Shown in pieces: positions 1,476 through 57,682 of a stretch of DNA of 64,000 nt. The notes under the pieces are model-generated. The model saw nothing but the letters and a program-made list of their open reading frames with translations. It was not told the origin of the DNA and did no database searches. This stretch comes from a virus. Taxonomy: Duplodnaviria > Caudoviricetes. A program made the position numbers and the translations under genes. Each line of letters begins with the position of its first letter. The first letter of the stretch is position 1. The stretch covers positions 1-64,000 of IMG/VR virus record IMGVR_UViG_3300014167_000003. One strand, given 5' to 3'.

Positions 1476-1564
1476 CGTGGGCGGATGTGGTCGCTATTGA
1501 GGCGATCTACCTTTTCCTGATGGCATGCTTTTTGGCCTTGGTGCTGTATTGGATCAACAAATGA
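1472..1564 (+). CDS. Small single-TM peptide (30 aa)
   Basis: MTWADVVAIEAIYLFLMACFLALVLYWINK; ATGA overlaps at both ends. Confidence 0.6.
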   Translation: MTWADVVAIEAIYLFLMACFLALVLYWINK

Positions 1565-3606
1565 CGAAGGTTGTCGCAATCATCCAGGCGCGCATGGGAA
1601 GCACCCGCCTGCCCGGCAAGGTGATGATGCACCTGCTCGGCCAACCGGTGCTCGAATGGTGCATCCGCGCCGCCTACGTCGCGCGCGATGTCGACGAGGT
1701 CTGGATCGCCACCTCGACCTTGCCGGCGGACGACGTCATCGCCGACTGGTGTGACGATAACGGGTTCTATTGTTGGCGTGGCTCTGAGACGGATGTGCTG
1801 TCGCGCTTCGTCGGGTGCGCCAACGCATGCGGCGCCGATGTCCTGCTTCGCCTTACGGGCGACTGTCCATTCCTGGACCCGCAGGTCATCGGCGCCGTGG
1901 TCCGGCTCTGGAAGCAGACCGGCGCCGCCTACGTCTCGAACATCTCGCCGCGCACCTACCCGGACGGGCTCGACGTGCAGCTGATGACGCGCGAGGCCCT
2001 GATGGCGGCTGACGCCGAGGCGACGCGTCCGCTCGACCGCGACGGCGTCTGCACTTGGATCGAGCGCAACCGCTCGCGCTTCCCGGCCGAGACCCTGATC
2101 AACCCGATCCCGAACATGCAGGACGAGCGCTGGGTGCTCGACACCGCCGACGACATGAAGTTCTGCCAGGCCATTGCGTCGCAGATGTCCTGGGCGATGG
2201 GCCCGCCGTCGCAGCTCGACATCCTGTCGATCCTGGACCGCGAGCCCGAGTGGCGCCGGCTGAACGCCGGCCACGTCATGAACGGGCGCTACTTCGACGC
2301 CCTGGCCGAGGAGCCGATCTATGAAAGGAAGTTCGAAAGGTCGCAGGCGCAGTTCGAGCGCGCCAAAAAGGTCATCCCGCTCGCCGCGCAAACCTTCAGC
2401 AAAAGCCCCCTCCAGTACCCGCAGCCGTCGCCGCTCTTCGTCAGCCACGGACAAGGCGGGCTGGTCTGGGATATCGATGGCAACGAGTACGTCGATCTGG
2501 TGTCCGCATTGCTCCCGAACATTCTGGGCTACCGTGACCCCGACGTTGACCAAGCCATCCGCCGCCAGCTGGGTTCTGGCATCTCCTTCTCCCTTGCGAC
2601 TGATCTCGAAGCGCAGCTCGCGGAAACGCTCTGCCGGCTGATCCCGTGCGCCCAGATGGTGCGCTTCGGCAAGAACGGCACCGACGTCACCAGCGCGGCG
2701 ATCCGCCTCGCCCGGGCGTTTACCGGCCGCGACCGGGTGCTGATCTGCGGCGGCTACCACGGCTGGCAGGACTGGAGCGTGGAGCGCAACCTCGGTGTGC
2801 CGCCCGAGGTAACCCACCTGACCGTGCGCGTGCCGTTCGGCAACATCAGCGCTCTCGAAAAGACCGTCGCGGCGCATGCCATCCCGGCAGATGCCGGATT
2901 GCGCAACTTTGCTGCGGTAATTGTCGAGCCGGAAAGCAACCCGGAATATCTGCGGGACCTGCGCAGGATGTGCGACGACTCTGGCACCCTGTTGATCTTC
3001 GACGAGGTCATCACCGGCTTCCGCTTCGACCTGGGCGGCGCGCAGAAGCTCTGGGGCGTGACGCCGGATCTGGCGACCTTCGGCAAGGCCATGGCCAACG
3101 GCATGCCGCTCTCGGCCATCGTCGGGCGCCGCGACATCATGAAGCGGTTCGAGCCGCCGGATAACATCTTCTATTCCGGCACGATGTTCGGCGAGACGCT
3201 CTCCTTGGCCGCCGCCATCGCCACCATCGACAAGCTGGAGCGGAGACACACCATCGACGATATCTGGGCCACCGGCACACATCTGCGCGACCACGCGATG
3301 GCACTCGTCACCAGGTGGGGCGTCGAAAGCTACATGCGCTTTTATGGGCAACCGCCATTCACGCGCATCCATTTTGCGAACGAGCAGGTCGCCGCCCTGT
3401 TCCGGCGCGAGATGATCGCCTCGGGCACCTTGATCACGTCGAGCCACAACATCTGCGCGGCGCACGGGCCGAATGAGATCAAGCGCATCTTGAAGAGCTA
3501 CGACCACGCGCTCGGCGTCGTGGCCGAGGCGGTGCGCAAGGACAACATCGCCGAGGTGCTCGACGGCGCCAGCGTCACCTCGGGCGTGCGAGGGCTCCTG
3601 CTGTGA
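1561..3606 (+). CDS. Fusion of SpsF/NeuA-like cytidylyltransferase and class III (GSA-like) PLP aminotransferase
   Basis: N-term AIIQARMGSTRLPGKV and RLTGDCP; C-term DIDGNEYVD, FGKNGTDV, LIFDEVITGFR, TFGKAMANG. True start is probably ATG 1561 (coupled), not 1525. Confidence 0.88.
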   Translation: MTKVVAIIQARMGSTRLPGKVMMHLLGQPVLEWCIRAAYVARDVDEVWIATSTLPADDVIADWCDDNGFYCWRGSETDVLSRFVGCANACGADVLLRLTGDCPFLDPQVIGAVVRLWKQTGAAYVSNISPRTYPDGLDVQLMTREALMAADAEATRPLDRDGVCTWIERNRSRFPAETLINPIPNMQDERWVLDTADDMKFCQAIASQMSWAMGPPSQLDILSILDREPEWRRLNAGHVMNGRYFDALAEEPIYERKFERSQAQFERAKKVIPLAAQTFSKSPLQYPQPSPLFVSHGQGGLVWDIDGNEYVDLVSALLPNILGYRDPDVDQAIRRQLGSGISFSLATDLEAQLAETLCRLIPCAQMVRFGKNGTDVTSAAIRLARAFTGRDRVLICGGYHGWQDWSVERNLGVPPEVTHLTVRVPFGNISALEKTVAAHAIPADAGLRNFAAVIVEPESNPEYLRDLRRMCDDSGTLLIFDEVITGFRFDLGGAQKLWGVTPDLATFGKAMANGMPLSAIVGRRDIMKRFEPPDNIFYSGTMFGETLSLAAAIATIDKLERRHTIDDIWATGTHLRDHAMALVTRWGVESYMRFYGQPPFTRIHFANEQVAALFRREMIASGTLITSSHNICAAHGPNEIKRILKSYDHALGVVAEAVRKDNIAEVLDGASVTSGVRGLLL

Positions 3607-4466
3607 GGTCCGTTCTCATTACCGGTGGCTCTGGAGCGTTCGGCACCGCCTGCGCGCGCCGGCTCCTCACGCTGACGCCGTACGGACCCACCCGCATTGC
3701 GATCTTCTCCCGTGGCGAGCACCGCCAGGCCGAGATGAACCGCGAGATGAATGCGTTCTCGCCTTCGGCGAACTGGCGCATGCGGTACTTCATTGGCGAT
3801 GTGCGCGACCGCGACCGGCTGCGCCGCGCCATGGAAGGCATCGAACTGGTGATCCATGCCGCCGCGCTCAAGCGGATCGAGACCGGCAACTACAACCCGC
3901 TGGAGGTCAAGCGCACGAACATCGACGGCGCCGCCAACGTGATCGAGGCCGCCACCGACGCCAACGTGCGCAAGATCGTGGCTCTCTCCTCCGACAAGGC
4001 GTACCAGCCGATCAGCCCGTACGGGACCAGCAAGGCGTTCGCCGAGAGCCTCTTCCTGGCCGCCAACAACACGCGCGGCAACCAGGGCCCGATCTTCTCC
4101 ATTGTAAGATATGGGAATGTCTGGGGCTCGACCGGCTCGGTGGTGCCAACCTGGCGCAAGATCCTCGAAACCTCCGACACCGTGCCGGTGACCGATCCCG
4201 ACTGCACCCGCTTCTTCATGACCATGGAGCAGGCGGTCGACCTCGTCCTGGATACCGCGAAGAGCATGCAGGGCGGCGAGATCTCGATCCCGACGCTGCC
4301 GGCGTACCGCCTGGGTGACCTTGCGGAGGCCATGGGTGCGAAGATGGAGGTGAAGGGCCTTCCGCCCTTCGAGAAGATGCACGAGAGCATGGACGCCTGG
4401 CAGAGCAGCGACAATGCCCGCCGGCTCACGGTCGACGAACTGCGGGACATCCTCAAATGCACGTAA
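3603..4466 (+). CDS. PseB/FlaA1-like UDP-GlcNAc 4,6-dehydratase (Polysacc_synt_2 type SDR)
   Basis: LITGGSGAFG, GDVRDRDRL, IHAAALK, ALSSDKA, YGTSK, RYGNVWGSTGSVVP, TRFFMT. Confidence 0.88.
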   Translation: MRSVLITGGSGAFGTACARRLLTLTPYGPTRIAIFSRGEHRQAEMNREMNAFSPSANWRMRYFIGDVRDRDRLRRAMEGIELVIHAAALKRIETGNYNPLEVKRTNIDGAANVIEAATDANVRKIVALSSDKAYQPISPYGTSKAFAESLFLAANNTRGNQGPIFSIVRYGNVWGSTGSVVPTWRKILETSDTVPVTDPDCTRFFMTMEQAVDLVLDTAKSMQGGEISIPTLPAYRLGDLAEAMGAKMEVKGLPPFEKMHESMDAWQSSDNARRLTVDELRDILKCT

Positions 4467-5335
4467 TGCTCTCTGCCGCCGCCTCGCCGGTCGCGCCGTC
4501 GATCATCCGCCACCTGCAGGCGCTCGGCCACTACGTCATCGGCCATGACAGTTTGCAGGAGGGCCTCGGCGCCAAGTTCTGCGACGAGTTCCACCTGTCG
4601 CCGAACATCGCGACGCACCGGTACGCGTACATTCAGTACCTCGGCCGGACGATGAGCAGCTGCGGCTGCTACTTCCCGTTCCTCGATGAAGAGCTGACGC
4701 TCGACTTCGGCGTGATCCCGGATGAGTTCATCTCGCCGCGCGACACGCTCGACATCTTCACGAGCAAGAACAAGCAGCAGCGCAAGCTCGGCGAGGCGGG
4801 CCTCCTGCCGGCGCCGACCATGGCGCTTGCCAGCGGCAAGGCCGTCTGCAAGCCCGACCTCGGGCGCGGCGGCAAGGGCGTCTTTTTCACCGAGGACCAG
4901 GTGATCATCGGCCGGCTCAGCAAGACCGGGTACCTGTGCCAGCAGCAGATCGACGGAGATGAGTACACCATCGACGTGCTCTGCGGCATGGACGGCAAGA
5001 TGCTGTTCGCGGTGCCACGGCTGCGCATCCAGGCGGCCAATGTGAGCACGGTCGGCCGCATCAAGATGGACGAGCGGCTCATCTGGCTCGCCGAGGACGT
5101 CACGAAGAAGTTCTATTTCCGTGGTCCGATCAACATTCAGGTGATCGTCGAGAAGGACACGGGCGTGCCGTACATCATCGAGGTCAACCCGCGCCTCTCC
5201 GGCTCCTGCATGTTCACGGTGATGGCTGGCTTCGACATCCTCGACGCCACCATCCGCATGCACGAGGGCAAAGAGTTCAAGCCGCCAAACCGGGTCGACG
5301 AGATCCTGGTGCGGCGCCGGTACGTGGAGAGCTGA
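4457..5335 (+). CDS. ATP-grasp ligase (CarB-like)
   Basis: KPDLGRGGKG, QQQIDGDEYTIDV, IIEVNPRLSGS. Confidence 0.85.
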   Translation: MHVMLSAAASPVAPSIIRHLQALGHYVIGHDSLQEGLGAKFCDEFHLSPNIATHRYAYIQYLGRTMSSCGCYFPFLDEELTLDFGVIPDEFISPRDTLDIFTSKNKQQRKLGEAGLLPAPTMALASGKAVCKPDLGRGGKGVFFTEDQVIIGRLSKTGYLCQQQIDGDEYTIDVLCGMDGKMLFAVPRLRIQAANVSTVGRIKMDERLIWLAEDVTKKFYFRGPINIQVIVEKDTGVPYIIEVNPRLSGSCMFTVMAGFDILDATIRMHEGKEFKPPNRVDEILVRRRYVES

Positions 5336-5337
5336 CG

Positions 5338-5487
5338 ATGACCTTCAAGGACATCCTCATCGGCCTGCTGTTCTTCATGACCGGCGCCATGCAGGCCGAC
5401 GCCAAGCGCGACGACGACTGGAAGGCGGTCTGCATCATCATCTGCGGCGGCGCCTTTCTCATTGCTTGCACGAGGCACTTCCTGTGA
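5338..5487 (+). CDS. Small two-TM peptide (49 aa)
   Basis: MTFKDILIGLLFFMTGAMQ...AVCIIICGGAFLIACTRHFL, translated by hand; absent from the ORF track. Confidence 0.55.
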   Translation: MTFKDILIGLLFFMTGAMQADAKRDDDWKAVCIIICGGAFLIACTRHFL

Positions 5488-5624
5488 AGATCGAACCGTG
5501 GCTCCTTATGACCGCCAGCCGCGACACCCTCGCCGGCCTGATGCCGCCGATCCCGCCGGAGCGGATCGTCGCCATCCTGCGCAAGGCTGGCTTCTTCCTG
5601 AAGATCAAGGACGCCGGGCGATGA
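5484..5624 (+). CDS. Small hypothetical protein (46 aa)
   Basis: GTG start overlaps the previous stop; stop overlaps ATG 5621; MKIEPWLLMTASRD...KIKDAGR. Confidence 0.5.
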   Translation: MKIEPWLLMTASRDTLAGLMPPIPPERIVAILRKAGFFLKIKDAGR

Positions 5625-6271
5625 GCGAACGCGTCATGGTCATCGCCGCGCACCCGGACGACGAGATCCTCGGCTGCGGCGGCACCATGGCCCGGCATTG
5701 GGCCGATGGCGACGAGGTCACCTGCGTGTTTGTTGCCGATGGCGAGACCGCGCGCATCATGGCGGCGCAGCCGAACCGCAACATCGCCGCGTTCAAGGTG
5801 AGCCAGCTCCTCCACATCCACCCGCCGGTCTTTTTCGACCTCAAGGACCAGCGCCTGGGCACCGTGCCGCTGCTCGACATCACCCAGATGATCGAGAGCC
5901 AGGTCGAGCAATATCGGCCGACCATCGTCTACACCCACCACCACGGCGACCTGAACGAGGACCACCGCATGGTGCACAAGGCGACCATGACCGCGCTGCG
6001 CCCGCTCCCTGGCGCCTCGGTCAGGGCGATCTACGGCTTCGAGGTGCTCTCGTCGACCGAGTGGGGCATCACCTTCAACCCGACGCACTTCGTCGACATC
6101 GCCGACTTCATTCACGACAAGATCGCGGCGCTGAAGCTCTACGACGACGAGATGCGCCCGTTTCCGCACCCGCGTTCGTACAGCGTCGTGAGGACGCTGG
6201 CCCGTTACCGTGGCTCCTGCGTCGGCGTGTCCGCCGCCGAGGCCTTCGTCACCTATAGGAGCATTCGCTAA
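5621..6271 (+). CDS. PIG-L family N-acetylsugar deacetylase
   Basis: VIAAHPDDEILGCGG, VYTHHHGDLNEDH, AEAF; start corrected to ATG 5621. Confidence 0.88.
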   Translation: MSERVMVIAAHPDDEILGCGGTMARHWADGDEVTCVFVADGETARIMAAQPNRNIAAFKVSQLLHIHPPVFFDLKDQRLGTVPLLDITQMIESQVEQYRPTIVYTHHHGDLNEDHRMVHKATMTALRPLPGASVRAIYGFEVLSSTEWGITFNPTHFVDIADFIHDKIAALKLYDDEMRPFPHPRSYSVVRTLARYRGSCVGVSAAEAFVTYRSIR

Positions 6272-6723
6272 TGTTCGACTTCCGACCTGCCCGCATGTCC
6301 GACGCGGACACGCTCTTCGCCTGGCGCAACGACCCGGTCACCCGCGCCGGCTTCCGCTCCACCGCCGAGGTGCCGCGCGAGGACCACGACCGCTGGATGC
6401 AGTTCAACGTGCTCCAGGGCTACCCGACCCACATCGTCATGATCGCCGAGACCGACGAGGGCAGCTGCGGCGTGGTCCGCTTCGATGCCGACCGGCGCGA
6501 CGTCATGAGTTATGAGACCTCGGTGATCGTGGCGCCGAACTTCCGTGGCCGTGGCCTGGGCGCGCCGATGCTCGCCGCCGCCTGTGCCAACATGAGCGGG
6601 TGCAAGCTGCACACCGTCGTGCGGCCGGAGAACGCCGCGTCGAGGAAGACCTTCGAGGGCGCCGGCTTCGTCCACGTCGGCGAGGATGGCGAGTTCATGC
6701 TCTACAAGAAGGAGCAGCCATGA
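6271..6723 (+). CDS. GNAT N-acetyltransferase (PseH-like)
   Basis: LFAWRNDP, HDRWM, FRGRGLG, ENAASRKTFEGAGF. Confidence 0.82.
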   Translation: MFDFRPARMSDADTLFAWRNDPVTRAGFRSTAEVPREDHDRWMQFNVLQGYPTHIVMIAETDEGSCGVVRFDADRRDVMSYETSVIVAPNFRGRGLGAPMLAAACANMSGCKLHTVVRPENAASRKTFEGAGFVHVGEDGEFMLYKKEQP

Positions 6724-7856
6724 TCGGCGCGATGAAGCGGTGGAGCGGCATCGACGACCGTGAGCGCGCGGCGGCGATGACCGCCCTGCATATGGACCTG
6801 TCCGGCTACCTGGCCGGCAAGGAGCGCGGCGGCTTCTACGTCCAGATGCTCGAAGACATGTGGGCCGACACGTTCAAGGTCAAACACGCCATCGCCTGCA
6901 ATAGCGCCACCTCGGGCCTCCTCGCCGCCGCGTTTGCGGTCAACCTCGGGCCGGAGGATAGGTTTGCCGTCTCGGCAATGACCATGTCGGCGACCGCCGC
7001 CGCGCCGATGTTCACGGGCGCGGCGCCGCTCTTCTGCGACGTCAACGACGACGACTTCGGCATGGTCACGCGCGCCATGCCGGAGAACACCAAGGCGATC
7101 TTTTCGGCCAACCTGTTCGGTAGGGCCGGCCACCTTGGCCGGCGCGAATGGGACAAGGAGTGCGGCACCTACCTGATCGAGGACAACAGCCAGTCGCCGT
7201 TCGCCATCGCCATCGGGCGCTACATCGGCACCATGGGCCACATCGGCGTCTGGTCGCTCAATGTCCACAAGCACATCCAATGCGGCGAAGGCGGCATGAT
7301 CACCACCGACGACGACGGCCTCGCCTGGCGCCTGCGCGGCCTCGTCAACCACGGCGAGAACCTCATGGGCCCTATCGGCCTGAACCTGCGCATGCCCGAG
7401 GTCTGCGCCGCCATCGCGGTAAGTCAGCTCCAGCGCGGGCCGTGGCTCGTCGGCGGCCGGGTGGAGCAGGCGCACAACATCCTGCGCGCCATCGGCGACA
7501 TTCCTGGCATCAAGGCGCCGCCGATCAGGGACGACTTCAGCAACGTGTTCTACCTGATCCCGTTCCTGATCGACGGGCGGGATGACGGCCCGCTCGATGA
7601 GGAGGTGTTTACGGATCGCCACCGCCGCGCGTTCTGCGCATCGCTGCGCACGAGCGGCGTGCCTATCGTTGAAGGCTACGTCGAACCGCTGTATAGGCTC
7701 CCGGCATTCGCGCGCTACCGGCGCCCGTGCCCGGTCGCCGAGGATCTGCAGGCCCGGCGGCTCTTCTACTTCGAGAATTGCGCCTGGGACCCGACGCCGG
7801 AGCAGATCGATCGGATTGGCGACGCGTTCAGGAAGGCCGCCAAGGAGACGCTCTGA
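6720..7856 (+). CDS. DegT/DnrJ/PseC-family PLP sugar aminotransferase
   Basis: CNSATSGL, LIEDNSQS, SLNVHKHIQCGEGGMITT, GLNLRM; start ATG 6720. Confidence 0.88.
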   Translation: MIGAMKRWSGIDDRERAAAMTALHMDLSGYLAGKERGGFYVQMLEDMWADTFKVKHAIACNSATSGLLAAAFAVNLGPEDRFAVSAMTMSATAAAPMFTGAAPLFCDVNDDDFGMVTRAMPENTKAIFSANLFGRAGHLGRREWDKECGTYLIEDNSQSPFAIAIGRYIGTMGHIGVWSLNVHKHIQCGEGGMITTDDDGLAWRLRGLVNHGENLMGPIGLNLRMPEVCAAIAVSQLQRGPWLVGGRVEQAHNILRAIGDIPGIKAPPIRDDFSNVFYLIPFLIDGRDDGPLDEEVFTDRHRRAFCASLRTSGVPIVEGYVEPLYRLPAFARYRRPCPVAEDLQARRLFYFENCAWDPTPEQIDRIGDAFRKAAKETL

Positions 7857-25304: not shown

Positions 25305-26603
25305 ATGCCGAGCATCACCACCGAGATCTGCAAGCGCAAGGTCACCCAGCGCACCGACATCTACGACAACAAGTGCCGAGGCTTCAGCGTCCGCCTGTCG
25401 CCCACGGCGCCGGCCATGTTCGCCTTCAAGTACTACGACAAGGCGCTCGGCAAGCAGGTCAAGCTGACCCTGCAGCACTTCGACCCGATCAACTACACCG
25501 TCGATAAGGCGCGCGCCGAGGCCTACCAGCTCAAGGCGAAGGCCGAGGCCGGCGTCGATCTCGCGCAGCAGAAGCGCGTCGCCACCACACAGCGCGCCAA
25601 GATCAGCGGCGTGACGTTCGAACAGATCGCCAAGGAGTACATCGACGCGATCAGCACCTTGGAAAAGAAGGCCGATGGCGAGCTGCGGCCGGTCAAGGAG
25701 AGCTGGAAGAACGACGAGGGTTACCTGAAGCGTCCACGCGCGGCGTGGGGCGCATGGGTCGCCTCCGAGGTCACCGACGATGATGTGATGGCTCTCCTGT
25801 TCTCCATCGACTCCGTGTCCAGCCGCAACCGGACCCGCTCCGTGCTCCACACGATGTTCAAGTGGGCGAAGCAGCCGCCGCGCAAGTACGTCACCAGCAA
25901 CCCGTGCAGCGACCTGCCGAAGCGTGACAAGGAGTACAGCAAGGACCGCGCGCTCGACCGCGACGAGATCAAGAAGCTCTGGATCGGTCTCGACCATCCC
26001 GACCTTCCGGCATCGCGGCCGGTGGCGCTGGCTCTCAAGCTGATCCTGTGCACGATGCTGCGCCCCGGCGAGGTGATCGTTGCCGAGCGGTCGTTCCTGA
26101 AGACGGTCGCCAAGGTGCAGGTCATCCAGTTGCCGCTGAAGGCCGTGAAGAAGCGCCGGGCGATCACCCAGCCGTTGACCGGCCTCGCACTGGCGCTGAT
26201 CGCCGAGGCCAAGTCGAAGCACAACCACGACCTCCTGTTCATCGGCCGTAGCCACAAGACCGGTGACGCCGTGCCGATGAAGCGCAACACGCTGTCGCAG
26301 GCACTCGTTGGCAAGAAGGACAAGAAGGGCAAGGTGCTGCGTCAGGGCATCCTCGACTTCCTCAGGATGAAGAAGTTCACGCCGCACGATCTGCGGCGCA
26401 CGGCGGCGACGTTGGCGGGTGACGCCGGCTTCGACGACAAGACCATCGGCCGTTGCCTCGACCACGCCGAGGAAGGCGCCGCCGATGTGACCGGCGTCTA
26501 TAACCGCTCTGCCTACATTGAACCGCGTCGGCAGGTGCTCGCTGCGGTCGAGAGCCAGCTCTTGGAGATCCTCGGCGACAAGGCGCTGCCTCTCGCGGCC
26601 TGA
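25305..26603 (+). CDS. int: Tyrosine integrase with N-terminal arm-binding domain
   Basis: CTMLRPGEV (R), FTPHDLRRT (HxxR), LDH, TGVY; adjacent attP. Confidence 0.93.
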   Translation: MPSITTEICKRKVTQRTDIYDNKCRGFSVRLSPTAPAMFAFKYYDKALGKQVKLTLQHFDPINYTVDKARAEAYQLKAKAEAGVDLAQQKRVATTQRAKISGVTFEQIAKEYIDAISTLEKKADGELRPVKESWKNDEGYLKRPRAAWGAWVASEVTDDDVMALLFSIDSVSSRNRTRSVLHTMFKWAKQPPRKYVTSNPCSDLPKRDKEYSKDRALDRDEIKKLWIGLDHPDLPASRPVALALKLILCTMLRPGEVIVAERSFLKTVAKVQVIQLPLKAVKKRRAITQPLTGLALALIAEAKSKHNHDLLFIGRSHKTGDAVPMKRNTLSQALVGKKDKKGKVLRQGILDFLRMKKFTPHDLRRTAATLAGDAGFDDKTIGRCLDHAEEGAADVTGVYNRSAYIEPRRQVLAAVESQLLEILGDKALPLAA

Positions 26604-26869: not shown

Positions 26870-28431
26870 TTAGCTACGCCGTGCGATGCTGGCGATCCGA
26901 TCCGCCATGTCGCTGTTGCTGATCTCACCGCCGCAGTTGCACGAGAACTCGTGCAGGTCGTCCTGGCTCAGTTCGAAGAACCGCGCCGCCTGCCCGACGC
27001 TCACCATCGGCGCCACATTGAGCGTCGGCACGCCTTCGAGATCCGCCTTGTAGCCGGCCGCGACAAACTCCGGCACCGCGAGCGCCGCCTGGAAGATCGA
27101 CTCCGGGTGCCCAATGAGGAAGAGCTGATCCGGCATGTAGTACTCCAGGCCGTGGAACAGGAAGAACGGCTTCGGCGGGCTCCAGTACATCTCGATGGCG
27201 TCGAGCAGCCCGCCATCCCTGCCGCGCCAGCGCGCGAAGTGCGCGAGCTTGATGAGCTTCTCCTGCTTCGTCATCACCACCGCCTTCGGCGGCGCCGAGG
27301 ACAGCGTTGCGCCGAGCGCTTCCAGTTCGGTCTTCGACAGCTGCGTGTTCATGCCATGCTCCTCTGTTGCCCCCTGCGTTCAACCACCGAGGTGGAGGCG
27401 TGCTCCTCGATGGAAACCTTCTTCCACAGCTCGCGGCGATCCGCCGGCAACCCGATCTTCTTCGCGTGGCGCCGCAGCGTCTGCGTGCTGTGGCCCATGC
27501 GTTCAGCGATCTCGCCGGGCGTCAGGCGGCTGTACCAGAGCTTCGTCAGCAGTTTGCTGTCCACCCGTTTGTGTAACCGGCTCTTCACGGTCGTCTTCCT
27601 TTTCTGCGGCAGGCATGGACAGATCGAAGGCCTCGCGCCTGAACTGCCGAAACGCGGCAAGGAGCGCGCTCCACTTCATCAGTTCACCCGCTCCGGCTTC
27701 TCGTGCATTGCCTCGATGACATTGACGGCGTCCTGCAGCTGCTCGACCAGGTGCGCGACACCGCCGTCGTAGTGGCGCTCCAGGTAGGCGCGGGTGCCCA
27801 TCATGAAGTCCTTGATCTCCTCGACCGAGAACGGGAACTCACCGGTCGGGAGCACGATCAGGATCGCCGGCTCCTCGGCCTTGCCATCGAGGGAGACGAC
27901 GCCATCGATCACGCCCACCGTGTCGCCGTCCTTCAGTTCGCAGTACGCCTTGATGAACTTGTCGGCGCGCGTCGGGTAGTTGTCGCTGGTGTTCATCTCC
28001 CTCGGGTAGTCCATCTGGCTCTCCTACTGAAACGCATTCGTCGGCAGGCGCCGAGGCAGCGACGCGACGATCTCGCGCGCGGCCTGCTGTTCGGGCCCGG
28101 CCTGTTCGAGCTGGTTGTCCGGCACCACGGGCTTGATCGCGAACTTGCGCGCCTCGCTCTTGGCGTTGTTCGCCGTCTCCACCACGACGTCCAGGCGGGT
28201 GGTCAGGTCGATGCTGTACGCCTGGAGCCGGTCACGCTCGGAGCGCAGCTTCGTCACCTCGCTGCGCAGGAAGTCGTTCTCGCGCATCAGGTCGACGTTC
28301 GAGGCGATGATCGCGGTGTTCTGGTCTTTGAGGGCGGCGAGTTCGTCCGCCATGATGTGGTAGTCGTCAAACGCCTTCTGCAGCGGATTGTCCCCGAGCA
28401 GCGGCGGCTTCGTCTTGGCTGTCTGTGACAT
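26870..28431 (-). CDS. Four hypothetical genes (26870-27352, 27349-27660, 27679-28014, 28024-28431)
   Basis: ORF track; 27349-27660 has an HTH-like TPGEIAERMGHS; 28024-28431 is coiled-coil. Confidence 0.62.
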
Positions 28432-28777
28432 ACTTGGTCCTCCGTTCGAGAATGGCGTCCAGTCGTCCCCGGATCGCTGCGATCTCGTTGCGCAGCGTCG
28501 GCTCTTGCTGCAGCCGCTCGTGGATGCGGCGGCAGGCATACATGATCGTGGTGTGGTCCTGGTTGAACTTGCGGCCGATGGCCGGATAAGACGACCGCGT
28601 CAGCTCCTTGCAGAGGTGGACCGCAACGTGGCGGACATTTACGAGGCTGGCGTCACGGTACTTCGCGAGCAACATCTCGCGGTCGATGCCGTAGTAGTCC
28701 GCGACAGCGTCCTGGATGTCGCGCATCTGCAGCGGCCACGTCGCCAGTTCGTGCAGGCTGAACCACGTCTCCTTCAT
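28367..28777 (-). CDS. Stand-alone DnaA C-terminal (domain IV) HTH protein
   Basis: IQDAVADYYGI, RHVAVHLCKELTRSSYPAIGRKFNQDHTTIMYACRRI. Confidence 0.88.
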   Translation of the reverse strand: MKETWFSLHELATWPLQMRDIQDAVADYYGIDREMLLAKYRDASLVNVRHVAVHLCKELTRSSYPAIGRKFNQDHTTIMYACRRIHERLQQEPTLRNEIAAIRGRLDAILERRTKYVTDSQDEAAAARGQSAAEGV

Positions 28778-31048: not shown

Positions 31049-31524
31049 GACAATGCGGGAACGAGCTTGCGGTCGATCAGTCCGGTGCGGTCGAGCGCGA
31101 CGGCAACGGCGGCAACATCGGACGCGAGCGGAAGGCTGGTCAGCTCCTCCAGGGCGGTCTTCAGGTGGCCCCAGATCGCCGCCTTCTCGTCGAACGTCTT
31201 TTTCCGGTCGTCGGGTGCCGCCGCACGCTTGCGCCTCTTCTTGGGCCTGTGCGCCACATGAGCGAGCGTGCGGTAGGCGCCGTCGACAGAGATCCGGCCG
31301 AGTTCGAGGTTGGCGATGATCGTCGGGTCGCCACGCAGGAGCACCTGGCGCGCCTTGACGACGCTCGACCGGTGCACCTCGAACTGGTCCGCCGCCTGCT
31401 GGATCGACACCGGAGGGTCAGCCGTCTCGTGGTGCCTGCCGTTCTCCGAGATGCCCAGGTTGCACACCCGCGCCGCCGCGAAGGCCCGGCGCGCAATTTC
31501 TCCGTTGTCGGGTTTATCGAGCAT
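31006..31524 (-). CDS. HTH DNA-binding protein
   Basis: SD GAGGTG before ATG 31524; VSIQQAADQFEVHRSSVVKARQV, GRISVDGAY. Confidence 0.7.
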   Translation of the reverse strand: MLDKPDNGEIARRAFAAARVCNLGISENGRHHETADPPVSIQQAADQFEVHRSSVVKARQVLLRGDPTIIANLELGRISVDGAYRTLAHVAHRPKKRRKRAAAPDDRKKTFDEKAAIWGHLKTALEELTSLPLASDVAAVAVALDRTGLIDRKLVPALSWLQEFQRCLSSKS

Positions 31525-31541
31525 TAGATCCACCTCACTGT

Positions 31542-31900
31542 ACGTTGCGATGCGTGGAGGCGAGGAGCGTGGCGATGCGATGCGAGGAGGCGCGAGGTGT
31601 CGAGCAGCTGTGCGTAGCGGTGGCAAATTTCGCAGACGTTGCGTTGCGTTGCGTTGCGGGGCGCCGCGAAGCGATGCGTTGCAGAGCGGGGCGCTGTGAC
31701 GCGGAGCGCTGCACTGCGTGGATAAACTTGGTAGACGTTGCGTTGCGGGGCGACGCGAAGCGGTGCGATGCAGAGCGGCGCTCTGTGAGGCGGAGCGTTG
31801 CACTGCGGTGCGAGGTGAAGCGGAGCGGTGCGTCGTAAAATTCTGGTAGACGTTGCGAGGCGCTGCGGTGCGTGAGCGGCGTTGCATTGCGCTGTTGCGG
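31542..31900 (-). ncRNA. Array of four pentamer-periodic units, (NN-CGC)n ending AACGT, separated by 14-15 nt AT-rich linkers; candidate guide-RNA array
   Basis: Units at 31542-31621 (16 pentamers), 31636-31720 (17), 31735-31834 (20) and 31850-about 31893 (about 9, one register slip). The repeat is directly visible; RNA status is inferred. Confidence 0.7.
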
Positions 31901-32395
31901 TCATCCCTGCGCTCCCTTGATCTTTTCGAGGAGGCTCGTGAGGTCGGGAACCGAGGAAGGCACAGCCCTGACCTTGACCGTTGCCGCCGCGTCCTCAATA
32001 GCCGCCAGCCGCGTGTTGTTCGTCGAGGCGCGCAACTGGTCGCCCGTGGACAAGGCGTCGAACTGGACAATGTGGCCGAGGCGCTTGCGGCCCCGGCGCG
32101 CGCCGCGCGCGATCTTCTTCAGATCGGCATCGGAGTGCGCCACCAGGTCTTGGTCGTGCATCCGCTTCCAGCCGTAGCTGCGGAGCCGGCGAAAGTGCAC
32201 CGGAGGGTCGCCGCGCTCCAACTCACGAAGCGCCGACCGCATCACATGACTGCCAGGGTCGACCGTATGCCCGAGCGTCTGACTGATCCGTTGGTCGGTG
32301 ATCTCGTCGTTAACACCAACCAGCAGGACCGCAAGGCGGCGTGCCATTTCGGCGATCTCGGGGCGCTTGATGAACATGGGGCGCGGCGTTGTCAT
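31901..32395 (-). CDS. Basic accessory protein between the RAMP gene and the array
   Basis: 164-aa ORF starting 3 nt after the RAMP stop; winged-helix-like N-terminal half. Confidence 0.7.
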   Translation of the reverse strand: MTTPRPMFIKRPEIAEMARRLAVLLVGVNDEITDQRISQTLGHTVDPGSHVMRSALRELERGDPPVHFRRLRSYGWKRMHDQDLVAHSDADLKKIARGARRGRKRLGHIVQFDALSTGDQLRASTNNTRLAAIEDAAATVKVRAVPSSVPDLTSLLEKIKGAQG

Positions 32396-32398
32396 GGT

Positions 32399-32956
32399 TT
32401 AGTTCCAGGTGAATTTGGTAGGTTTGAACCGACCGTTCAGCCCGCCCTTTTGCGGTTTGAAGCGGCCGATGCCGATGCTGGTGCCCGCCGTCTTCAACAC
32501 GCGTTCAAAGATCTCCTTGGTGACGGTGTCGTCCAAGATTGTGAACGCAGCGTCAGCCTCCCACTGCGGTATCACCGGGAAGGTACGCCAGACCCGCTTG
32601 CCGCTGCCCCTTACGCCATCGACGTTGCAGCTAACACGGACGGAGGCAACGGTGTCCTTCCTGGCGGCCAATACAACATCATGGTCGCAAATGACGTCGG
32701 CTTCGAAGAACTTGGTATAGGTCTTCTTGCCTTTGCCGGGGATTTGGATGCCGAGCTTTTTCGCGGAGGCGTCAAGACATTGCTTGAGGGCCATGGCCGG
32801 AATGTAGATAAAACCGTCCTCGTTGTAGTTGCACTTCTCCCGCCAAGTGCGCTTCTCGTGGTCGTCGTTCGTTTCGCCGCTCAATTTCGGCACTTCATGC
32901 TGATGGGATTGAGAATACGGGGTAATGCTTTCAAGCCGAACAGTGACGTTACGCAT
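32399..32956 (-). CDS. Stand-alone RAMP/Cas7-like protein
   Basis: N-terminal strand VTVRLESITPY, IYIPAMALKQCL (compare RAMP IPGSSLKG), C-terminal Gly-rich loop SIGIGRFKPQKGGLNGRF; SD GGAGG. Confidence 0.72.
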   Translation of the reverse strand: MRNVTVRLESITPYSQSHQHEVPKLSGETNDDHEKRTWREKCNYNEDGFIYIPAMALKQCLDASAKKLGIQIPGKGKKTYTKFFEADVICDHDVVLAARKDTVASVRVSCNVDGVRGSGKRVWRTFPVIPQWEADAAFTILDDTVTKEIFERVLKTAGTSIGIGRFKPQKGGLNGRFKPTKFTWN

Positions 32957-32974
32957 TGTCGTCCTCCATTATGG

Positions 32975-33029
32975 TCGTTGCGATGAGTTGCGGCGCGCAG
33001 CGCAGCTCTGCGATGCGTGGCGGGGCGGA
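32975..33029 (-). repeat. Solo pentamer unit (11 x NN-CGC) upstream of the RAMP gene
   Basis: + strand tcgtt gcgat gagtt gcggc gcgca gcgca gctct gcgat gcgtg gcggg gcgga. Confidence 0.8.
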
Positions 33030-33036
33030 ATGGTCG

Positions 33037-56602: not shown

Positions 56603-57682
56603 TCATAGGATCTGGATTGAGACGTGCGCCGAGGTGATAACAGCGACGGCCGAGCCACCGACAACGGTGGAGGCCTGTTCAATTGCGCCCGAGGTGCCTG
56701 CGGTGGCCACCTGCTCCACCACGCCGATCTCGCCGCCCGTGAAGCTCTCCTCGATCACGCCGATCTCGCCGGAGACAACGGTGTTCCAGAAGCGGACGCT
56801 CTCGACCAGGGTGTCCTTGGTCTCGATGGCCGAGAGCGCCGCGAACGTCGTCGCGGTCGGCCGCAGCTGGCTCGGCCCGGTGTAGAATTGCTGCAGCCAG
56901 GAGCCGAGGCCGATCTTGAGCCGCACGGGCTCGGACAGGTTCGCGAACCACTCGATCAGCTCCTGGAGCGGGATGACGGACGGGTCGGTCGCGAAGAACT
57001 GCTGCTCCGGCGCCGGCAGGCCGGGCTTGAGCCGCACGGGCTCGGTCAGCCAGTTGTAGTAGGCGAACGAGACGAGCGGCTTGTAGCTGCCGTAGGCCAA
57101 GAACTGCTGCTCGGCGGCCGGCACGCCGGGCTTCTGGCGCACGGGTTCCGAAAGCCAGTCGAAATACGAGAACGTGACAACGGGCTTCTGGTCGCCGTAG
57201 GCGAACGCCTGCTGCAGCTCCGGCCGCAGCCCTGGCTTGATGCGGACAGGCTCCGAGAGCCAGTCGAACCAGGAAATGTTGATAAACGGGAACGGCTGGG
57301 AGAACTCGTACTGGTTGTCGCCCGGCAGCAGCCGCAGCGACACCCGAACCGGGTCCGACAGGTTGTTGAAGTAAGCGAACGAGACGAGCGGGTTGTTCGG
57401 CGCCTGGATCAGCGCCTGCTGGTCGGCAGCGGCCAACCCAAGCTTCGTTTTGACGATTGGCTCGGACCACGCATAGTGCCACGACGCCTCGTCGTTGCTC
57501 GGGTCCAGCGCCTGCGGTATCGGCGCGAAGGCGCCAGATGCGGCCAAGGCGATGGCGAGAGCCGGCGCGATCTTCTGCCGCACGGGCTCGGACCATGGGA
57601 AATGCCACTCGCTTTCGGTCTGAGCCGGGTCACTCCGCGCGAGAACCGGTTCGGTCGTTTGCTGGTACTGAAATCTTAGCAT
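56603..57682 (-). CDS. Repeat protein with about seven (W/L)SEPVRxKxGL repeats
   Basis: Repeats visible in both protein and DNA. Confidence 0.7.
   Translation of the reverse strand: MLRFQYQQTTEPVLARSDPAQTESEWHFPWSEPVRQKIAPALAIALAASGAFAPIPQALDPSNDEASWHYAWSEPIVKTKLGLAAADQQALIQAPNNPLVSFAYFNNLSDPVRVSLRLLPGDNQYEFSQPFPFINISWFDWLSEPVRIKPGLRPELQQAFAYGDQKPVVTFSYFDWLSEPVRQKPGVPAAEQQFLAYGSYKPLVSFAYYNWLTEPVRLKPGLPAPEQQFFATDPSVIPLQELIEWFANLSEPVRLKIGLGSWLQQFYTGPSQLRPTATTFAALSAIETKDTLVESVRFWNTVVSGEIGVIEESFTGGEIGVVEQVATAGTSGAIEQASTVVGGSAVAVITSAHVSIQIL

Follow-up and report, generated by a model that had tools for sequence, protein, structure and literature searches.

Gene content of the locus

The window (the whole stretch of DNA analyzed here, 64,000 nucleotides) belongs to a complete phage genome of 73,997 bp with direct terminal repeats and a G+C content of 64.6%. 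The phage was called temperate because its genome carries an integrase gene (25305 to 26603), and its host is probably a wetland alphaproteobacterium. Positions 31527 to 31900 lie in a minus-strand early operon that also encodes RecT, a PDDEXK exonuclease, a DnaA-C-domain protein (28367 to 28777), and uncharacterized proteins. In the gene sense (minus strand), this segment is an array of 5-nt units, each composed of CGC and two free bases (NN), arranged in four blocks; the end of each block is CGCAA-CGT, followed by a short AT-rich or pyrimidine-rich spacer. A fifth block lies upstream of the gene at 32399 to 32956, so that the order along the minus strand is one putative guide unit, vipr, an accessory gene, and four putative guide units. 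Names follow the parts of VIPR (Viral Interference Programmable Repeat), an RNA-guided, CRISPR-like system for silencing DNA that was first described in 2026 and comprises a phage-encoded minimal RAMP (Vipr), an accessory gene (vap), and RNAs of about 100 nt termed vrRNAs (bioRxiv 10.64898/2026.04.26.720920). The features are as follows.

32957 to 33036, minus strand: putative vrRNA unit 1, upstream of vipr, with ten CGCNN-type units at 32978 to 33027
32399 to 32956, minus strand: vipr, encoding a predicted 185-aa minimal Cas7-like RAMP
31901 to 32395, minus strand: vap-like accessory gene, 164 aa, with its start 4 nt past vipr
31835 to 31900, minus strand: putative vrRNA unit 2 (unit D), a short, partly degenerate run that includes a 4-nt unit
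31721 to 31834, minus strand: putative vrRNA unit 3 (unit C), 19 pentamers at 31738 to 31832, tail CGTCTACCAAGTTTATCCA
31620 to 31720, minus strand: putative vrRNA unit 4 (unit B), 16 pentamers at 31639 to 31718, tail CGTCTGCGAAATTTGCC
31527 to 31619, minus strand: putative vrRNA unit 5 (unit A), 15 pentamers at 31545 to 31619

The ten pentamers of unit 1 are followed by CGCAA-CGACC and then by a short tail leading into the ribosome-binding site of vipr, and unit D ends in CGCAA-CGTCTACC and an AT-rich spacer. The final four pentamers of unit B are all CGCAA. Unit A, the triplets of which include AGC, CTC, and CAC, has a tail that enters the start of the next gene. The shared 3' ending can be written as CGCAA-CG(T/A) followed by a variable spacer of 12 to 20 nt, with no significant fold and no pseudoknot; folding of the units as RNA likewise gave no stable structure (z scores, −0.6 to +2.0), and scans against Rfam and for tRNAs came back empty. 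No sigma-70-like promoter or terminator was found among the units, which makes it plausible that they are cotranscribed with the operon and then processed. The predicted products would be sense-strand RNAs of about 80 to 110 nt, one per unit, with the 3' end after CGCAACGT.

The AF2 model of Vipr (pLDDT, 91.8; pTM, 0.84) has an RRM core, a thumb hairpin at about residues 104 to 129 (tip DGVRGSGKR), and a C-terminal glycine-rich loop (G-loop; G162-I-G-R-F-K-P...GG-NGRF), which reads GIGRFKPQKGGLNGRF. When this model was compared with the PDB using Foldseek, the top matches were all Cas7-family RAMPs (type VII Cas7, Csm3, and Cmr4; E values, 5e-8 to 1e-5), led by 8z4j_J (E, 4.6e-8) and including Csm3 8do6_E (TM score, 0.64) and Cmr4 6s6b_I. 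On the strength of the predicted fold, we assign the product of 32399 to 32956 to the Cas7-like minimal RAMPs with high confidence. The protein has more than 1,800 homologues; searches placed it in no Pfam, NCBIfam, or PADLOC family and in one uncharacterized PHROG only. An hhalign comparison of the family alignment (A1) with the 195-aa Vipr of phage phiSUSP1 returned a probability of 87% (E, 3.7e-6; 122 columns) and put the two G-loops in register (GVGDWRP in phiSUSP1, GIGRFKP in the window), and tblastn alone found no match between the two proteins; the link that their sequences suggest is weak.

The accessory gene has homologues 11 to 12 nt past vipr in the closest relatives only (L017 to L019; 58 to 60% identity) and a weak match in L004, and other members of the Vipr family carry different accessory genes. 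Its AF2 model (pLDDT, 60 overall and about 80 for residues 10 to 80; topology, H-S-H-H-S-S) drew only weak winged-helix matches in Foldseek, none better than an E value of 0.03, and the N-terminal part of the modeled protein is tentatively regarded as winged-helix-like. The one metatranscriptome run with any of this DNA, from a wetland, contained a single identical 154-nt contig from within this gene (32161 to 32314), possibly through DNA carry-over, and no sequence from the units.

Duplicated units and positional constraint

The original prediction, made from the letters of the window, held that units B and C are duplicates that diverged almost only at the NN positions. We aligned the two units from the conserved 3' CGCAA-CGTCT, leaving out the two extra CGCAA units of B, to give 14 pentamers. 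Over this alignment the triplets differed at 1 of 42 nt, as first counted (the sole change being CGC versus AGC), the rare triplets TGC, CAC, and TGC fell in register, and the two additional CGCAA copies of B relative to C were recovered; the dinucleotide count, given earlier as 8 of 28 differences, came to 6 of 28 on recounting, and the contrast between triplets and NN stood (Fisher exact P = 0.014). Alternative registers each yielded 19 to 25 NN differences, which marks B and C as true duplicates; as judged from their sequences, they are tandem copies of one putative guide in which the scaffold was kept and six NN bases diverged. The NN positions are AT-richer than the genome, as had been proposed, with a G+C content of 39% (46% without the CGCAA units) versus 64.6% for the genome. 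Across the 60 units of the window, C occupied position 3 in all 60, and the entropies of the five pentamer positions were 0.63, 0.76, 0, 1.83, and 1.97 bits.

Read as codon positions 1 and 2 of the complementary strand, the six B/C differences were conservative (G/A, I/V, T/S, etc.), with a mean BLOSUM62 score of +0.75 versus −0.90 for random single-base changes (P = 0.008; six sites only), whereas a forward-strand codon reading gave no conservative effect (P = 0.46). A pair of guides tracking two alleles of a single gene would be expected to show such conservative changes, and the NN divergence of B and C most likely reflects two alleles of the same target gene. The codon-conservative character of the differences is an indirect hint in favor of the proposal that B and C match allelic variants of one target; no target was found for either unit. 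The target peptide predicted on the strand complementary to the guide reads G-[P/T]-[K/N]-[I/V]-[L/I/M]-[D/E]-[G/A]-L-[T/S]-[D/E]-L-L, and a fuzzy search of all collected sequence with this peptide gave no match.

The further suggestion that slippage tunes guide length did not hold in its original form, because the extra units of B are copies of the constant 3' unit CGCAA and add no guide information; slippage probably changed the copy number of this 3' element in B. Among 248 distinct CGC-type runs (from L004, L017 to L145, and the window; median length, 12 units), NN was AA in 58 to 60% of the last two units, in 35% of the third-from-last units, and in about 10% of units elsewhere. The terminal CGCAA-type units also do not pair in the guide match of locus L055 described below. 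The enrichment at run ends and the unpaired terminal units together suggest that the terminal CGCAA reads as a constant 3' element within the repeat tract.

A profile search with Vipr yielded 80 viral loci and 48 genomic loci encoding the protein. A first scan placed period-5 arrays next to the gene in 70 viral loci out of the 80. A stricter chain caller, applied to these 80 loci, L004, and the window (82 sequences), found same-strand runs in 64 of them, of which 54 were of the CGC type, 6 CAC, 3 GGC, and 1 CTC. Antisense chains were sparse, those of the CGC type being restricted to L036 and the window (6 units each). Many of the 48 genomic loci carry arrays too, with further examples of every triplet class. 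The exact motif GGTAGACGTTGCGNNGCG had 15 matches in IMG/VR, of which only those in L004 were arrays and the others were due to chance, and blastn of the region against phage records returned no match.

Substitution by position modulo 5, the check proposed at the outset, was examined in 12 nonredundant pairs of closely related phages. Mismatches were not evenly spread, reaching 5.7, 11.3, and 1.3% at the triplet positions and 31.5 and 33.3% at the NN positions; the adjacent vipr gene in close pairs had 3.8, 2.3, and 16% at codon positions 1 to 3. Between L059 and L061, the vipr genes are identical and about 36% of NN bases differ. Part of the pairwise NN excess may reflect BLAST alignment of nonorthologous units through their shared scaffold, and the contrast between triplets and NN still stands despite such pairing. 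The RAMP gene, the layout, the position-specific constraint, and the published VIPR mechanism all support the original idea of a protein-bound fixed scaffold with free information positions.

Comparison with VIPR and CRISPR and searches for targets

The vrRNAs of VIPR contain 9 to 16 units with a constant GGY triplet and hypervariable NN, which pair with double-stranded DNA so that one target base is skipped per unit; the same paper also admits "a related consensus", with YNNNG repeats among those listed (10.64898/2026.04.26.720920). Genes are counted as vrRNA genes from at least 4 tandem units upward, typically 9 to 16, and the four regular runs of the window have 10, 19, 16, and 15. The structural paper on VIPR describes one protomer per unit, with the triplet flipped into protein pockets and a position-3 pocket that excludes purines. 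Published experiments concern GGY-type systems of enterobacterial and Pseudomonas phages, and type II VIPR is represented by phiSUSP1 and a Pseudomonas fulva prophage (10.64898/2026.04.26.720920, 10.64898/2026.04.26.720927, 10.64898/2026.10.15.759431).

The closest comparison is with phiSUSP1 (KT454805.2), in which a single GGYNN unit, genes of 195 and 146 aa, and three further GGYNN units follow one another on one strand. Both systems are phage encoded and have a lone minimal RAMP of 185 to 195 aa with a thumb and a G-loop. A small accessory gene follows directly, and the 5-nt-repeat units, one before the RAMP gene and a tandem set downstream, share the strand of the genes. As in type II VIPR, a constant triplet with a pyrimidine fixed at position 3 alternates with hypervariable NN, no guide matches its own genome, and guides of relatives match VIPR-adjacent genes of other relatives with a 1-nt skip and wobble alignment. 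The triplet differs, being CGC here (CAC, CTC, and GGC in sister clades) and GGY in the published systems. Since the VIPR paper admits a related consensus, including YNNNG, which CGCNN fits, the difference between CGC and GGY separates subtypes and does not decide membership. The G-loop has R-F-K/R in place of D177-W178-R179 of phiSUSP1; the predicted 3' end consists of two to three CGCAA, CGT, and an unstructured spacer of 12 to 20 nt, whereas the published tail is about 45 nt long and contains a pseudoknot; at the sequence level the accessory protein and phiSUSP1 vap1 are unrelated, with no detectable similarity between them; and the host is probably the wetland alphaproteobacterium. We consider it very probable that 31527 to 33036 (minus strand) is a VIPR locus with five vrRNA genes, vipr, and an accessory gene. 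This kind of system was already published in 2026, and the window locus extends it.

A second comparison is with the backbone subunits of class 1 CRISPR. The predicted Vipr fold resembles Cas7 proteins (Csm3, Cmr4, and type VII Cas7; E values, 5e-8 to 1e-5; TM scores, 0.55 to 0.64), and the glycine-rich loop, the thumb hairpin, and periodic RNA binding with one protomer per guide repeat, as predicted here, are common to both. The window locus differs in lacking a repeat-spacer array, further cas genes, and a second RRM; no CRISPR-type direct repeats were found, and Rfam and PADLOC gave no match. A period of 5 nt, of which 2 bases pair, contrasts with one of 6 nt, of which 5 pair, in CRISPR, and VIPR guides are hard-wired genes rather than acquired spacers.

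For target searches, 255 distinct guides were taken from all loci, 251 of which (those with at most 40 units) were scanned, and 169 had the at least 12 units needed for scoring. These guides were compared with 0.8 Mb of collected sequence, with arrays masked and with 0 to 3 skipped bases. Outliers appeared at a skip of 1 only (23/24 and 21/24), save for one skip-3 match (22/24) that falls on a degenerate, unmasked array; 1,014 shuffled guides reached a maximum of 21, twice. In the strongest case, which surpassed all of the shuffled guides, a guide of L055 (2224 to 2303) matched L058 (4384 to 4422) at 25 of 26 NN bases at a skip of 1, compared with 20 of 26 for its own allele and 20 of 26 for the allele of a third phage, and all skipped bases were codon third positions of an SNF2-like gene (peptide DVLPELPPIDFTIL). 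The second case pairs L058 (6059 to 6128) with L062 (5849 to 5884), at 21/24 versus 18/24 for the own allele, and is also codon aligned. These putative guide-target pairs, one strong and one borderline, are the support for a 1-nt skip in the Vipr family, and they match the published picture of guides aimed at the VIPR-adjacent genes of relatives.

Phages of the L055/L058 type have an SNF2-like helicase gene after vipr and arrays in nearly every intergenic gap. For the guides of L055 and L058, the best-matching allele belongs to a relative, and the phage's own allele of that gene is immediately next to the guide.

Guides of the window compared under the NNx code with their own phage genome scored at the shuffle level, which agrees with the VIPR papers, and the same level was obtained against 0.63 Mb of related loci and, in 10-unit windows, against the local region. 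In IMG/VR, exact patterns built from unit A, from the 5' portion of C, and from the consensus of B and C had no match, nor did the consensus pattern have one in JGI metagenomes. A relaxed pattern restricted to the positions shared by B and C gave 3 matches in IMG/VR and 63 in metagenomes, none above 21/24, which is the chance level, and these fell in unrelated proteins. No target was found with up to 3 mismatches in 406 bacterial genomes (5 with related prophages and 401 of the order of one of them). As these searches found no target for the window guides, the guide function of the window locus is one that we infer from its relatives and from the published systems.

Alternative readings and proposed mechanism

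Among the other explanations, the one that fares best keeps the RAMP-bound RNAs and denies them a role as DNA guides: they would serve as a scaffold, a sponge, or a regulator of the early operon, with NN free to vary since it is not read. Such a role fits the setting of the units, which belong to a polycistronic early operon and are separated by neither a sigma-70-like promoter nor a terminator. However, the divergence at NN is about double that at the wobble positions of the neighboring gene, which suggests turnover or selection and not mere neglect; the B/C differences are codon conservative on one strand only; and the L055 guide matches 25 of 26 NN bases in a gene of a relative under the published code. 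We regard this explanation as improbable.

Still less probable, at a few chances in a hundred or so, is an action of the array as DNA, in the form of origin iterons or a site for a DNA-binding protein such as the DnaA-C-domain protein. With a period of 5 bp, neighboring sites would alternate between the two sides of the double helix; 64 loci keep one orientation relative to vipr, antisense runs being few and weak; and the array associates with a RAMP, which is an RNA-binding fold. These points stand against the location of the array within a replication and recombination module (RecT, exonuclease, and a DnaA_C HTH) and a DnaA-box-like TTATCCACG in the spacer between C and B (31719 to 31727, minus strand), a box that is single and is absent from the remaining spacers and from relatives.

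A protein-coding gene can be given next to no weight. The minus-strand frame at 31524 to 31904 (126 aa) is open and overlaps its upstream neighbor by ATGA and its downstream neighbor by TAATG, but none of the three sense frames of an NNCGC repeat can contain a stop codon, which makes an open frame automatic and the ORF a by-product of the repeat. Its conservation has a period of 5 rather than 3, the 10-nt indel between B and C would shift the frame, and the translation is of low complexity and has no family match. Scarcely any chance remains, too, for a functionless product of neutral, microsatellite-like slippage: perfect CGCAA runs do vary in copy number between B and C, but the constraint is position specific (C at position 3 in every unit), the orientation is fixed, and arrays are conserved beside one protein family across many phyla with lineage-specific triplets.

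A TRAP-like ring site, a Rho utilization site or antiterminator, an R-loop origin, and a cluster of primase sites were also considered and dropped, given that the neighboring protein is a RAMP and that the triplets of some sister clades are G-rich (GGC). TRAP (trp RNA-binding attenuation protein) is an 11-mer ring that regulates a leader RNA, and its sites are (G/U)AG triplets 2 to 3 nt apart. The array resembles such sites in its constant triplet with about two free bases, an oligomeric protein reader (as predicted for Vipr), and unstructured RNA; the TRAP fold is not a RAMP, and the window has no TRAP-like gene.

Returning to the VIPR reading, we propose a mechanism by analogy with phiSUSP1. 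One Vipr protomer would bind each 5-nt RNA unit, hiding the constant triplet C-G-C with its invariant C at position 3 and presenting the two variable bases outward. The NN bases would pair with double-stranded DNA with one base skipped per pair (NNxNNx...), the skipped base often at a codon wobble position, and binding would silence genes of competing phages. RNA expression and processing, binding by Vipr, and DNA targeting at the window locus would thus follow the experimentally studied GGY-type systems.

The protein family offers a candidate determinant of triplet specificity in residue 165, which aligns with D177 of phiSUSP1. Nearly all CGC loci (70 of 71) and all 8 GGC loci have Arg here, the 7 CAC loci, among them a distant lineage, all have Gln, and the CTC loci have Arg, Ser, or Thr; the loci compared include L066 to L075, L112, L076, L077, and L096 and represent few independent lineages. 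Within the G-loop GxG-[R/Q]-F-R-P, it tracks position 2 of the repeat, with Arg accompanying G and Gln accompanying A. The Asp-for-Arg swap expected at this residue in GGC clades from D177 of phiSUSP1 was not found, and the GGC clade also carries K41R, A54P, N111P, R124K, E169R, and N174Y/F.

It is conceivable, though we lean somewhat against it, that the Vipr family has a rewritable protein-RNA code for the scaffold triplet and gains new guides by tandem duplication and subsequent NN divergence in step with target alleles, as B and C suggest. If residue 165 sets the triplet, coinfecting phages could run orthogonal VIPR systems without cross-loading of guides, and candidate specificity residues, if confirmed, might lead to orthogonal programmable DNA-binding systems. 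The same architecture with a CGC scaffold occurs in a large, mostly environmental family that spans alphaproteobacterial prophages and many other phyla. Units B and C provide what appears to be a clean natural example of guide diversification, in which duplication was followed by changes nearly confined to NN and codon conservative.

Elsewhere in the window, Tandem Repeats Finder reported a 105-bp unit in the late region (56994 to 57268; 2.0 to 2.6 copies, 73 to 78% matches). The plus-strand ORFs at 1525 to 3606, 3603 to 4466, and 6600 to 7856 match PHROGs of aminotransferases and a nucleotide-sugar epimerase, and 1525 to 7856 looks like a phage-borne sugar-modification cluster.
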